64,000 nucleotides of DNA, taken from positions 82,242 to 146,241 of the forward strand of contig JBAZOQ010000001.1 of the NCBI GenBank assembly GCA_041648595.1, read 5' to 3'. Shown here in pieces: positions 1,751 to 35,936 of this stretch (the stretch's first letter is position 1; each line of letters starts with the position of its first letter). Under the pieces are notes generated by a model that made no database searches, was not told the origin of the DNA, and saw nothing but the letters and a program-made list of their open reading frames with translations. This stretch comes from Minisyncoccota bacterium. Lineage in GTDB: Bacteria > Patescibacteriota > Minisyncoccia > Phycocordibacterales > UBA9973. The translations under genes and the position numbers were made by a program.

Positions 1751-3775
1751 TTAGAGTAAATCCTCTGGATCTATAGAGATTTCGTAAGTAGGAGGTAGAG
1801 ATAATAACAAATTATATAAATTCTGATCTATTACTGAATTATTAGAAATTTCTGGTAATGACCATTTTTGGGGATTTAATCTTATTAATGCATTAGTTAC
1901 ATATTGATTTTTATTTTTACTTATAAATCCACTAAAAATTTCTGGTTCATATAATTTTAAAATTTCACTTAAATTTCTTTTTGCTTCTATGGAATCTTCT
2001 TTTTCTCCTAAAAATGTAATTTTTATAAAACGTTTGTATGGAGGATAATTTAGATTTTTTCTATCTTCTAATTCCTCACGTACATAAGAAAGTAAATTTT
2101 CTGATTTAAATGCAAGTAAAGTTTTGTCATTTTTATTTTTTGTTTGAATGATAAGTTTTTTTTCAGTTTTATCAAGAATAGAAAGTAAAAGCTGAATTAT
2201 TTTTTCACTCATTCTAAAACTTGGTATACTCCAAAGAGCATCAAATGAAGCTACAATAGATAAATCAACTTTTTCTTTTAAGTAATAAAAAGCCATTTCT
2301 GTGCCTATTAATATTTTACCAACATTCTCTCCGCCGGAGGCGGATCCGCCCTTGGCGGAAAAATCTTTTATTATTTTTTCTGCTCCAGATGCTGTTTTTG
2401 CTATTTCTTTATCTATTTTAAAGATTTTTGTTTTATTAAATTTATTTTTTATTTCTTCAAAAATTGTATCTGTTCCTATACCGAGTGGCATCAAGTTCCA
2501 GCTTCCACAATTTATACATTTTGTTTGTGGATCTTTTTCCGTATTGCACTTGTTGCAGATAAACATTCTTTTTTTACCATCCTTAGAAAGATAAAGTACA
2601 AGTGGAGCTAAACATTCTTCACAATTGACTGTTTCATTACAATCTTTACATACAGTATACGTTGCTAGGCCTTTTCTTAGTGAAAAGATGAAAACATTTT
2701 TTTTGTTATTTAAAGAATTTTCTATTTCCTCAATACTTATATCATTAAATATTTTAAACTTAGAGGCCTTGCCTCCGCTTGGAGGCAAGGCCTCTAAGTT
2801 TTCTTCTTTATTTGTATTTATTATCTTTGTTATTACTTGATTAAAATTAGTTCTAAAAGACAAAGGATATATTTCACTAAAATTATCAATTTCTTTTCTT
2901 GCTATTGTTTCAAAACGTAATAATGTATCACCTAATATAAATTTTGCATTAATTTTTGAAGCGAAAAGTTCCGCAAAAATTCGTAAATCAAAATGAGGTC
3001 GTGGAATCATCTTGTAAACATTTGAGCTTTCATGTTCAACTATTATTACACTTATGTCTATACGAGGTATAGACAAAAATGGTGCAGTCCCTAATATTAA
3101 TACGCCATGTTCTGAATTTATTATATTTTTATATTGTTCAATGACTTTTTTAGGTTTTAATCCTCCATGTATAGAAAAAGTAAAATTTTCAATACCCTTA
3201 GAAAGTGATTGATAATACATATTTATATCATGTTCTGTAGGTAATATAATAAAGACAGATTTTTTTAGAGCAAATTGTCCACGAATTAGAGTTTTATAAT
3301 AGGAAATACGATCCTCTAATTGTGCTTGGAATAATAATTTTTCAGTTTTTATATTATTAGAAATATCTGCTGTTTTTTCTTTTTGATTATTTTCGTTTAA
3401 AGAAAATTGATTACTAGAAGAAAATTCTAATATTTCATCATATTTTTCTCGGAATATTGACGGAATAAGAGACAATACTCCATTATTTTTTTTTGTCATA
3501 AAATAAGAACTTAAAAGAAAAGTAGATTCTAGATATTCATTTCTAAAAATTGAATGCTCTTTTACCTCAGTTATTTTTTTCAACTTAAAAGACATATTTT
3601 TGATTTTTGATTTTATATCTGTAACTTCTTGAGAAGAAACAACTAAACCTAGAATTTTTTTATTGCGAACAGGAACATAAACAATACTTCCATTTTTTAT
3701 ATCTTTTGACGTAAAATAACTTAAATCTGTTTTGAAAACTCCTTTTTCTAGTGGTATTATGGTCACAATTTTCAT
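1751..3775 (-). CDS. priA: primosomal protein N' (PriA helicase)
   Basis: It has helicase motifs and a Cys4 zinc-binding region (CKDCNETVNCEEC...CNKCNTEKDPQTKCINCGS) within 674 aa. It contains two in-frame GC-rich palindromic insertions (see findings). Confidence 0.8.
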   Translation of the reverse strand: MKIVTIIPLEKGVFKTDLSYFTSKDIKNGSIVYVPVRNKKILGLVVSSQEVTDIKSKIKNMSFKLKKITEVKEHSIFRNEYLESTFLLSSYFMTKKNNGVLSLIPSIFREKYDEILEFSSSNQFSLNENNQKEKTADISNNIKTEKLLFQAQLEDRISYYKTLIRGQFALKKSVFIILPTEHDINMYYQSLSKGIENFTFSIHGGLKPKKVIEQYKNIINSEHGVLILGTAPFLSIPRIDISVIIVEHESSNVYKMIPRPHFDLRIFAELFASKINAKFILGDTLLRFETIARKEIDNFSEIYPLSFRTNFNQVITKIINTNKEENLEALPPSGGKASKFKIFNDISIEEIENSLNNKKNVFIFSLRKGLATYTVCKDCNETVNCEECLAPLVLYLSKDGKKRMFICNKCNTEKDPQTKCINCGSWNLMPLGIGTDTIFEEIKNKFNKTKIFKIDKEIAKTASGAEKIIKDFSAKGGSASGGENVGKILIGTEMAFYYLKEKVDLSIVASFDALWSIPSFRMSEKIIQLLLSILDKTEKKLIIQTKNKNDKTLLAFKSENLLSYVREELEDRKNLNYPPYKRFIKITFLGEKEDSIEAKRNLSEILKLYEPEIFSGFISKNKNQYVTNALIRLNPQKWSLPEISNNSVIDQNLYNLLLSLPPTYEISIDPEDLL
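2329..2360. repeat. GC-rich double-hairpin element (family D copy 1), in-frame inside priA, encoding ...SAKGGSASGGEN...
   Basis: The sequence ccgccggaggcgg atccgcccttggcggaaaaa forms two adjacent hairpins. The 3' half (gatccgccYttggcggaaaa) is nearly identical to an intergenic copy at 42486..42518. Confidence 0.7.
2764..2795. repeat. Perfect 32-bp GC-rich palindrome in-frame inside priA (encodes LEALPPSGGKASKF)
   Basis: The sequence gaggccttgcctcc gctt ggaggcaaggcctc has 14-bp perfect arms in an otherwise ~25% GC gene. The frame is preserved on the priA strand, and the palindrome also creates the spurious antisense ORF 2625..2840. Confidence 0.75.
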
Positions 3776-3818
3776 GTTTCTATTCTAACATAACTTATGA
3801 TATATTTAATTAATGGGT

Positions 3819-34531: not shown

Positions 34532-35936
34532 TTTTCCCTAAAATTTCAGCTATGATAAATGGATCAGGAGATTTATCAAGTCCCGACAGGGCATATCGAA
34601 CAGGATGTAATAGTTCTCCCCTACTTTCTAATCTATCTGCTATCTGCATTAAAGTATTTTTTATGTTTTCTGTTATAAAGTTTTTTTCCTCTAACTTATT
34701 TAACTCCACAATAGCTAAAGCTAAATTTTCTGAAATTTTTTCAGATGTTATGTTCTTATATAAAAGCTTATCCCTAAAAAACTCAGGCTGTTTATAAAAG
34801 AAGTCCAACTCTCCTCTTTCTATCATTTCTTTTATATCACTCCATTTTGAAATTCTCTCTGTAATTATGGGAATTATTTTTCCTGCCTTGCCGGCAGGCA
34901 GGTCTATTTTTAATTCTTCTGGAAGATATTTAAATATATTTTCTTTTAATTCTTCTTTTGATAATTTTTTTATATGTTCCTTGTTTATCCAATTTAATTT
35001 AACATCGTTCCATTGAGCTCCAGAATGACCTACGCGAGATAAATCAAAAGTTTTTATAAGTTCATCAATAGTGAATATTTCTCTTTCATCTCCAGGATTC
35101 CAACCCAAAAGAGCTAAAAAGTTAATCATTGCTTCAGGTAAATATCCTTCCTTTCTATATTCTAAAACATCTTTTGCTCCATCTCTTTTACCAAGTTTCT
35201 TTTTGCCATCTTCACCCATTATTGGTGGCAATGTTGCATATAATGGTGGTTTTATACCTAATGCATCATATAAAGAAAGAAATTTAGGAACTGAAGATAT
35301 AAATTCTTGTCCACGCATCACATGGGTTACACCCATTTCAATATCATCTATAATATGTGCAAAATTATACGTTGGATAACCATCACTTTTTATTAAAATA
35401 AAATCATCTAATGCTTCAGGACCAGCAGAAAGATCACCATATACAAGATCATTCCATTTATAACTTTTTATTTCTGGAGTTTTAAAACGAAGTGGCTTTG
35501 TATAATCCCATTTATCAAAAACTTCTGGACGATGTTCCCTATATAAAAATGGTTTCTTCACAAGCAAAGCCCTATCACGAAAAATTCCTACTTCTTCTTC
35601 AGTGTATGGGTCAGGATAAGCTAAACCCTTATCAATAAGTATTTGTGCATATTTTTTATATGAATCAAGTCTTTCTGATTGTAGATATGGAGCATTTGGT
35701 CCACCAATATTTGGTCCTTCATCCCAATTAATTCCCAACCATTTTAATGATTCAATAATGTGCTCAATAGAGCCAGCTACTTCCCTTTCTTTATCTGTAT
35801 CCTCAATTCTTAATATAAAAGTACCTTTATTCTTTCTAGCCCAAAGCCAAGCATATAAAGCAGTACGAATACCACCAACATGCATAAAACCAGTTGGAGA
35901 AGGAGCAAATCTTGTAACAACTTTCATATTTCCCAT
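34497..35936 (-). CDS. gltX: glutamyl-tRNA synthetase
   Basis: The HIGH-class motifs PSPTGFMHVGGIRTALYAWLWA and KLGKRDGAK (KMSKS-like) are present, with an anticodon-binding C-domain. Confidence 0.85.
   Translation of the reverse strand: MGNMKVVTRFAPSPTGFMHVGGIRTALYAWLWARKNKGTFILRIEDTDKEREVAGSIEHIIESLKWLGINWDEGPNIGGPNAPYLQSERLDSYKKYAQILIDKGLAYPDPYTEEEVGIFRDRALLVKKPFLYREHRPEVFDKWDYTKPLRFKTPEIKSYKWNDLVYGDLSAGPEALDDFILIKSDGYPTYNFAHIIDDIEMGVTHVMRGQEFISSVPKFLSLYDALGIKPPLYATLPPIMGEDGKKKLGKRDGAKDVLEYRKEGYLPEAMINFLALLGWNPGDEREIFTIDELIKTFDLSRVGHSGAQWNDVKLNWINKEHIKKLSKEELKENIFKYLPEELKIDLPAGKAGKIIPIITERISKWSDIKEMIERGELDFFYKQPEFFRDKLLYKNITSEKISENLALAIVELNKLEEKNFITENIKNTLMQIADRLESRGELLHPVRYALSGLDKSPDPFIIAEILGKNETLSRLQKAI

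Follow-up and report, generated by a model that had tools for sequence, protein, structure and literature searches.

GC-rich nested palindromes lodged in frame within essential genes of a CPR bacterium are probably miniature mobile elements

Introduction

Several systems of short palindromic repeats resemble the elements described here. Rickettsia palindromic elements (RPEs), in the account of Ogata et al. 2000 given by PMC10969869, are repeated palindromic elements of ~100-150 bp, comprising about ten families, that sit in frame within unrelated housekeeping genes of Rickettsia (Alphaproteobacteria). Repetitive extragenic palindromic (REP) sequences, bacterial interspersed mosaic elements (BIMEs) and REP doublets forming hairpins (REPINs), together with their REP-associated tyrosine transposases (RAYTs), are treated in PMC3116915 and PMC3733652. 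REPINs are inverted doublets of a short palindromic unit that can adopt either a long hairpin or a two-hairpin 'clover'; they are extragenic and adjoin a RAYT gene, and their spacers run to tens of bases. REP units carry a conserved GTAG or CGTC tetranucleotide at one end (PMC3733652). A RAYT dimer has been proposed to recognize the clover form (PMC3116915). Organelles offer a third comparison: yeast GC42 clusters (PMC4478555) and sponge repetitive hairpin-forming elements (RHEs; PMC2800124) are GC-rich palindromes of 17-84 bp, sporadically distributed in AT-rich, compact mitochondrial genomes, which merge and shuffle. Such clusters occur occasionally in frame in var1, nad2 and nad5 and are exchanged between species by homologous recombination at conserved flanks (PMC4478555, PMC2800124). 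Here we analyse a 64,000-nucleotide stretch of contig JBAZOQ010000001.1 from a Minisyncoccota bacterium, hereafter the window, in which five short GC-rich elements (E1-E5) lie in frame within priA, a holB-like gene and topA, and a sixth (E6) is intergenic.

Genomes of the Candidate Phyla Radiation (CPR, or Patescibacteria) are among the smallest and most streamlined, and are usually described as poor in mobile DNA. The window, with 29.3% GC, comes from such a genome (~92% coding), as had been suspected from its sequence: its TopA is 100% identical to a protein from a Candidatus Paceibacterota metagenome-assembled genome, and the next-closest TopA relatives (79-89% identical) are annotated as Candidatus Nomurabacteria or Paceibacterota. 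On the evidence below we consider it probable that the elements are diverse miniature, non-autonomous, selfish mobile mini-palindromes of Paceibacteria/Nomurabacteria-type CPR bacteria.

Results

We located GC islands (24-bp windows of at least 62.5% GC) before searching for hairpins. We counted 42 islands in the window; dinucleotide-preserving shuffles gave 16 on average and at most 22, and none of the islands in the shuffled sequences held a perfect stem of at least 8 bp. The elements are 30-52 bp long, have a GC content of 52-60% against 29% for the genome, and extend their host proteins by loops of 10-16 residues. An original prediction, made from the letters alone, had described GC-rich perfect palindromes inserted in frame within essential genes. 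All five strong sites proved real, the reading frame is kept in each, and the peptides quoted were exact. Perfection was the part that needed correcting: E2, E4 and E5 are perfect or near-perfect palindromes, whereas E1 and E3, as well as E6, consist of two adjacent short hairpins. The antisense open reading frames (ORFs) attributed to the inserts, at 2301..2594, 2625..2840 and 16782..16970, also exist.

Two elements reside in priA (1751..3775, minus strand; 674 residues; Pfam PriA_3primeBD; orthologs labelled primosomal protein N'). E1 (2330..2359, minus strand) is a 30-nt double hairpin in which TCCGCC-N3-GGCGGA occurs twice; it encodes SAKGGSASGG (residues 473-482) and has an RNA-fold z-score, computed per element here and below, of -3.9. 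E2 (2756..2801, minus strand) is a nested palindrome with a 21-bp stem, a 4-nt loop and a 42-bp core at 2758-2799; it encodes NLEALPPSGGKASKF (residues 326-340) and folds with a free energy (dG) of -40.9 kcal/mol (z -9.5). Two more occupy the holB-like gene for a DNA polymerase III delta' subunit (4953..5690, plus strand; 245 residues; Pfam DNA_pol3_delta2; orthologs found). E3 (5437..5472, plus strand) is a 36-nt double hairpin built on TCCCGAC-N4-GTCGGGA, present as TCCCGAC-CGAA-GTCGGGA followed directly by TCCCGAC-AGAG-GTCGGGA (z -5.3). Its peptide, PTEVGIPTEVG (residues 163-173), falls inside the span VPTEVGIPTEVGK at residues 162-174. E4 (5541..5586, plus strand) is a 46-bp perfect nested palindrome encoding HHRVALCNYTGLPCGG (residues 197-212; -45.4 kcal/mol, z -9.4). 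The fifth, E5 (16871..16922, minus strand), lies in topA (15803..18058, minus strand; 751 residues; Pfam Toprim, Topoisom_bac and Zn_ribbon_Top1). It is a nested palindrome with a 24-bp stem and a 4-nt loop that encodes SAEALLPRTRGSKASAE within residues 379-396 and has the fold dG -50.4 kcal/mol (z -10.8). E6 (42485..42514, unstranded) sits between a cyclophilin gene and an unknown ORF and joins CAGCC-TGA-GGCTG to TCCGCC-TTT-GGCGGA (z -4.6). It shares the TCCGCC-N3-GGCGGA unit with E1, bearing out the earlier suggestion that a priA insert has an intergenic relative. An Rfam scan of the window at gathering thresholds returned only three tRNAs, and no known RNA family covers the elements.

The long elements are palindromes of palindromes. 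The long hairpins of E2, E4 and E5 have arms that each form a small hairpin of their own, and the loops of the small hairpins are mutually reverse-complementary, as in E5 (GCGGAAGC-CTT-GCTTCCGC ... GCGGAAGC-AAG-GCTTCCGC). Each element is therefore an inverted duplication of a hairpin, not a tandem one, and its self-complementary arms allow either a single long hairpin or a pair of short ones. We looked for the same design in the topA loci of 80 species-representative genomes, which with the window amount to 1.37 Mb; related and metagenomic loci carry labels of the form L001. Strong hairpins number 176 in this DNA against 9 in shuffles. Among 38 long GC-enriched hairpins, 22 have arm-internal stems of at least 5 bp (2.2 expected from arm composition) and 12 have stems of at least 7 bp (0.1 expected). 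The underlying modules have a 5-9 bp stem and a 1-5 nt loop and are set as adjacent or inverted pairs. One of them, TCCGCC…GGCGGA, occurs alone in E1, beside a CAGCC hairpin in E6 and nested centrally in an E5-type element of L006. Nested long hairpins in the window and its relatives are tolerated in genes but not enriched there: 19 of 25 are coding, against a coding density of 92%, with 2 at gene edges and 4 intergenic.

E2 recurs in unrelated genes. Scanning metagenomes for its exact arms (GAGGCCTTGCCTCC-N2-8-GGAGGCAAGGCCTC) recovered 31 loci on contigs of 31-52% GC. They share a core, ACTTG-GAGGCCTTGCCTCC-N4-GGAGGCAAGGCCTC-CAAGT (5+14+4+14+5), that spans 42 bp, or exactly 14 codons, and beyond which conservation stops sharply. 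The ends of this core are inverted rather than direct repeats, and we see no target-site duplication. The ORFs that carry E2 belong to 17 non-homologous groups. Ten hosts are confirmed by Pfam (ATP synthase gamma, a metallophosphatase, M50 and M1 peptidases, RNase R, the NAD-dependent DNA ligase LigA, DnaE, EF-G, an IF-2-like GTPase and RsmE), PriA and TopA are also among them, and PurL, ProRS, a prepilin peptidase and a CAP-domain protein were recognized by eye. E2 has no stop codon in any of its three frames, yet the 27 copies located in a long ORF, from more than ten independent host groups, use a single shared frame encoding EALPPxGGKAS (LEALPPxGGKASK). The same frame is used in TopA, PriA and HolB homologs. 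The central codon specifies Ser (AGT) or Leu (CTT) in about equal numbers, and both orientations therefore occur. The elements thus reach non-homologous sites, both within a genome and from one genome to another, in both orientations and without visible target-site duplication.

Other families behave similarly. The window priA, topA of L001 and atpG of L092 and L097 all carry a symmetric variant of the arms, TTAGAGG…CCTCTAA, which marks a subfamily spreading as a unit. The 30-nt E1 element and its SAKGGSASGG peptide occur both in the window priA and in a murA-like gene of L057. One family is present in both dus and topA of L013, and another in dus and at an intergenic position of L018; an E4-like element occupies a different gene in L058, and the two-module composite of E6 is again intergenic in the unrelated L084. 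The E1 and E2 families recur in many unrelated assemblies. The further copies that had been expected of the families were found in both coding and intergenic DNA. Across the topA region of the window (5803-28058, with E5 and a weak candidate in dus), assemblies from the ENA and the Joint Genome Institute (JGI) are 99.996-100% identical. L018 also carries a half-element-like GCGGAAGCAAAA. The M1 aminopeptidase of L088 combines the E2 peptide with a second Gly/Ser/Pro-rich stretch, TPTPSSSGHSPSGRGRS, which is SPSPSQGEG/PLAGGE-like as in TopA relatives; this one gene may hold several different elements.

Orthologs show the segments as lineage-specific insertions. The cleanest case is the murA-like gene of L057, in which exactly 30 nt, two 15-nt hairpins (TCCGCCAAAGGCGGA·TCCGCCTCGGGTGGA), separate the codons of KKL and KPAEIVM in phase 0. 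About 25 orthologs read continuously from KKL into KPAEIVM, and no flank is duplicated at the L057 junction, hence no target-site duplication. At the E1 site, 105 of 120 PriA orthologs are in the short state without an insertion and ~13 have Gly/Ser/Ala/Pro-rich insertions. In E. coli TopA (4rul), a gap of 15 residues falls exactly where E5 sits. Comparing filled and empty versions of E2 in the M50 peptidase gave no clean junction, the region being a variable linker.

Some sites have been filled repeatedly. The E2, E3 and E4 sites are hypervariable loops at which relatives hold the same family, another family or nothing: the E3 loop contains the E3 family, the E2 family or neither, and the E4 site the same family or a different, longer one. 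The TopA loop is short in ~75 of 120 close relatives (IEGH-ED-LPDF type) and has 10-30 extra residues in ~40. More than 20 related species have hairpins there with 17-25 bp stems and a dG of about -35 to -50, drawn from at least 8 distinct sequence families. A TopA tree computed after masking the loop shows the inserted states dispersed among short-state clades, with the AEALL…SKASA family in distant clades. L002 lacks an element in this loop although it is a close relative. Orthologous copies differ by point substitutions; the window and L071 hairpins differ by one mismatch, in proteins that are 86-89% identical among such relatives. TopA relatives (P0002-P0120) also show at least 15 further insertion sites rich in Gly, Ala, Ser, Pro and Arg, some of them between the C-terminal zinc ribbons; among the peptides are GLPAQA, LPLASGKAG, PASTRGDSSTRGG and GLPPARAGGAQA, and these are probably further element families.

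Dus has a hot loop of its own. Lineage-specific insertions of at least 6 residues contain a perfect stem of at least 7 bp in 27% of cases in TopA and 13% in Dus, against 3% and 1% in length-matched controls, and the percentages for insertions are underestimates, as the aligner splits hot-loop insertions into several blocks. These insertions are 8-13 GC points richer than controls (54% against 41% GC in one comparison).

Structural models of TopA and HolB, the two proteins modelled, place the inserts at permissive surface positions, in keeping with what had been anticipated. The AlphaFold model of TopA is of moderate quality (predicted local distance difference test (pLDDT) 69, predicted template modelling score (pTM) 0.36) and sets the insertion between confident beta-strands at 368-379 and 402-411, with residues 385-395 below a pLDDT of 50; E5 is thus predicted to be at the tip of a beta-hairpin. 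In the HolB model (pLDDT 83, pTM 0.71), E3 lies within the only disordered segment (162-177), and E4 covers a helix end together with the turn that leads to the following helix.

Two weaker candidates of the original prediction, in genes whose identities Pfam supports, fared less well. In dus, a 10-bp stem with one mismatch (22242..22264, plus strand) sits in a real and highly variable loop, where relatives have up to ~58 extra residues. Its own fold is not significant (z -1.9), and it adds only ~5 residues relative to the base state, an addition common to L012; it may be a decayed element in a genuine hot loop. The gltX hairpin (34882..34902, minus strand; 7-bp stem, z -3.0) is not an insertion, because DLPAGKAG aligns without a gap to EVSDEKAL of the solved GluRS 6brl, and we excluded it from the family.

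The remaining annotated ORFs of the window are ordinary housekeeping genes, a Fic/RhuM protein and an AbiE toxin-antitoxin pair; mreB and murG are also present, and dprA adjoins topA. Several other repeats and islands were noticed. A GC-rich repeat with a conserved core of ~60 nt (…TTTCTGAGCCTTCGCCCTCGGAGTCCGTGAGGACAGGGAACCCACGACTCTT…) is present in three copies (22492-22560 and 49733-49800 on the plus strand, 40930-40985 on the minus strand). Its copies are flanked by A/T runs, are intergenic or at gene ends and are not simple palindromes; the repeat has no Rfam match beyond microRNA noise far below threshold and could represent either a small RNA or a further family of mobile repeats. The GC-rich intergenic stretch between priA and mreB (3776-3933, with islands at 3812-3854 and 3910-3938) has no Rfam match at E<=1 and is a candidate structured leader or small RNA. 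The region 43619-48986 begins with a 1.4-kb ORF-poor stretch holding two palindromes with a shared core, ACAAACTCCAGTTTGT (43701-43736 and 44037-44070), followed by three ORFs without a Pfam match (45024..47578) and an AbiEii/AbiEi toxin-antitoxin pair (47629..48986); it may be a mobile or defence island. An ORF with RhuM-family and Fic/DOC domains (369-1349) contains an AT-richer palindrome with a 12-bp stem at 566-590 (AACTTGTAAGGAATCCTTACAAGTT).

Palindromes were also seen in the relatives. Genes downstream of topA carry the GC-rich palindromes ATCTCCGC-TATA-GCGGAGAT or TACGGCGGAGGC-AAC-GCCTCCGCCGTA at apparently orthologous positions (L018 18707-18734, L031 19749-19776, L047 17141-17174 and L061 7876-7907; L020 16924-16950 and L031 16994-17020), and these may be old fixed elements or encode a conserved motif. 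Different genomes (L018 7739-7786, L026 2597-2644, L033 101-132) have a perfect palindrome of 48 bp (AAAATAGCTAGGCAAGACCTAGCATGCTAGGTCTTGCCTAGCTATTTT) where an orthologous gene starts, and it resembles an operator or regulatory site more than it does a mobile element.

Discussion

If the elements are selfish and mobile, most insertions would land in genes, given a coding density of ~92%. Survivors would be those with a net length that is a multiple of three, in a surface loop and in a frame giving a flexible peptide rich in Gly, Ala, Ser, Pro or Lys, and the outcome would be a loop extended by 10-16 residues in an otherwise conserved essential protein. GC-richness probably aids both hairpin stability and the avoidance of stop codons. 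Families would then diversify by symmetric changes in the arms and by merging or nesting of modules, and their passage between genomes would probably rely on natural transformation together with homologous recombination of conserved host genes. As to the mobilizer, our guess by analogy is that an HUH/Y1-type single-strand DNA transposase specific for hairpins, comparable to those of IS200/IS605 or RAYT, acts in trans on the two-hairpin form; we make it because there is no target duplication, the substrate is a hairpin and an alternative two-hairpin fold exists. Selection at the peptide level is the simplest explanation for single-frame use in E2, because all three frames are open yet one is used by 27 copies, as has been argued for RPEs.

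Several observations weigh against this interpretation. In the hot loop of TopA, a simple insertion does not turn the empty state into the filled one; the hairpin replaces a short variable stretch. Strict use of one frame, together with near-perfect stems over ~10-25% protein divergence, could mean positive functional constraint. The annotated ORFs of the window include no transposase and no RAYT gene, and a rough IS200 TnpA probe reached a best E-value of only 0.19 by tblastn against 1.6 Mb of related DNA rather than whole genomes, a weak negative. Viral contigs yielded no copies of E2 or E5, and no vector was identified. When we looked for co-conversion of topA flanks, same-family pairs were only slightly more similar (mean z +1.1, n=20, pairs non-independent). 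Finally, two other assemblies of the window population are identical to it and carry no information on gain or loss.

A bolder proposal is that nested-palindrome elements, spreading horizontally, are a main source of the variation in loop length seen in the essential proteins of Paceibacteria, with their four-fold symmetry reflecting transposition chemistry and hot loops arising from the targeting of existing hairpins. We regard this as doubtful. Its chemistry would call for a dimeric hairpin-specific enzyme that recognizes the two-hairpin form, or for one arm to regenerate the whole element by fold-back synthesis. Were it true, it would amount to a REPIN-like system that has shifted from intergenic into coding sequence in genomes with almost no intergenic space.

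Among the alternatives to selfish transposition, the one that survives best is spread chiefly by homologous recombination and gene conversion. Here pieces of conserved housekeeping genes would travel between species by natural transformation, existing hairpins would undergo ectopic conversion, and de novo insertion would be rare. We hold this to be possible, if short of probable. The TopA loop speaks for it: the same family is found in distant clades nested among empty relatives, along with a changed flank motif (AN[IV]...F[EK]F instead of xIEGHEDL), and dprA lies beside topA in the window. The route is also documented for yeast GC42 (PMC4478555). The greater similarity of flanks in same-family pairs points the same way, but the signal is weak and not independent of phylogeny. 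More seriously, recombination cannot explain first arrival in 17 unrelated genes or the clean 30-nt insertion in the murA-like gene. It complements selfish mobility and does not exclude it.

Could the hosts instead have selected the elements as functional modules, making their recurrence a matter of recruitment and not of parasitism? They might act as mRNA structures that affect translation pace or stability, as protein-bound DNA structures (as REP/BIME with gyrase or IHF) or as peptide linkers. Such a role would account for the use of a single reading frame, the repeated occupation of the same loops and the stems that remain nearly perfect between relatives, as in the window and L071, and stems of yeast GC42 are reported to be under constraint (PMC4478555). 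We nonetheless find it improbable. Elements are missing from close relatives, as in the empty TopA loop of L002 and the PriA orthologs without E1, and unrelated sequences fill the same loop. Their position within a gene is arbitrary, their hosts are functionally unrelated, distant orthologs such as E. coli TopA work without them, and copies are intergenic too.

Local origin without mobility is less probable again, indeed very improbable. According to this idea, template switching during replication (quasi-palindrome correction or fold-back synthesis) in a lineage with reduced repair creates palindromes in place, of which the GC-rich ones persist by avoiding stops and folding stably. The palindrome-of-palindromes design does suggest iterated inverted duplication, hairpins in hot loops often replace local sequence in place of a clean addition, and L018 has its half-element-like sequence. 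Independent events cannot, however, yield an identical 42-bp sequence in 17 non-homologous genes of genomes with 31-52% GC, an identical 30-nt E1 in priA and murA, or the same symmetric subfamily variant in three genes, and as a sole explanation local origin is largely refuted. Template switching may nevertheless be what keeps the palindromes perfect once they are inserted. Assembly or sequencing artefact, in the form of palindromic chimeras from library preparation or assembly (a known artefact of some amplification methods), is a negligible prospect given that frames are kept in every case, the independent ENA and JGI assemblies are identical across the E5 region, the same elements occur in dozens of assemblies from different projects and orthologous copies differ by point substitutions. 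DNA-uptake sequences were set aside too, since the families seem too diverse for one uptake motif.

If the selfish-element interpretation holds, CPR genomes host abundant and diverse ultra-short selfish elements hidden in essential genes (EF-G, the IF-2-like GTPase, DnaE, LigA, TopA and PriA). The elements would explain some of the puzzling differences in length among CPR orthologs, lineage-specific insertions in TopA and Dus being ~9-fold enriched for hairpins. They create spurious antisense ORFs, may mislead gene callers, alignments and phylogenies, and place hairpins of -40 to -50 kcal/mol in the mRNAs of essential proteins. The 42-bp element is a possible marker for gene flow between CPR lineages. 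Taken with Rickettsia RPEs and mitochondrial GC clusters, this would be a third, independent case of palindromic parasites in reduced AT-rich genomes. It also supplies natural experiments on which loops tolerate insertions and makes the movement of such elements testable in a bacterial system with thousands of genomes.

How do the elements compare with described systems? They behave like RPEs, as the original prediction proposed and as the evidence on the five strong elements supports, more strongly than the letters alone could show because the same elements sit in many essential genes throughout a CPR clade: they lie in frame in unrelated housekeeping genes, have a conserved peptide in one frame per family, are compatible with folding and occur in the small AT-rich genome of a host-dependent bacterium. 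RPEs as described are set apart by their size and host. The elements here are 30-52 bp long, GC-rich relative to the genome, palindromes of palindromes and from the CPR phylum. Two other candidate classes were rejected. Classical miniature inverted-repeat transposable elements do not fit, as the whole element is palindromic and has no duplication and no cognate insertion sequence in the DNA searched. Palindromic amphipathic repeat coding elements (PARCELs) share coding DNA with dyad symmetry and horizontal spread among small-genome bacteria, but they consist of an amphipathic unit of 25 residues repeated in tandem within surface or unknown ORFs, whereas the elements here are short single insertions in housekeeping enzymes.

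In appearance the elements recall REPINs. E2, E4 and E5 are two inverted copies of a short palindromic unit; they are non-autonomous and show compensatory arm changes, and new copies arrive in or next to old ones. IS200-type transposition, like the elements here, leaves no target duplication. Unlike REPINs, they are mostly intragenic (19 of the 25 nested hairpins, 27 of the 31 E2 copies) and have spacers of 0-8 nt. Neither a GTAG nor a CGTC head is present in the consensus sequences of E2, E3 and E5; in E4, GTAG occurs only within a loop.

With mitochondrial GC clusters they share the form of short, GC-rich palindromic or double-hairpin repeats in an AT-rich genome, a sporadic distribution and the merging of modules (L006, E1 and E6). 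The double-hairpin elements (DHEs) of Allomyces belong in the same comparison. Yeast clusters differ in being organellar and bordered by brief direct repeats (AG or ACT) that resemble target-site duplications, whereas the elements here are bacterial and mostly inside essential genes, with no direct-repeat flanks at the clean murA-like junction of L057 and with inverted, not direct, ends in E2. A full-text literature search, which did not cover all journals and so offers absence of evidence only, found no description from CPR or Patescibacteria, in agreement with the earlier impression. The elements thus behave like RPEs, look like REPINs or mitochondrial GC clusters and appear to belong to none of those families; they seem to form a bacterial counterpart, so far undescribed, to the palindromic elements of Rickettsia and the GC clusters of mitochondria.

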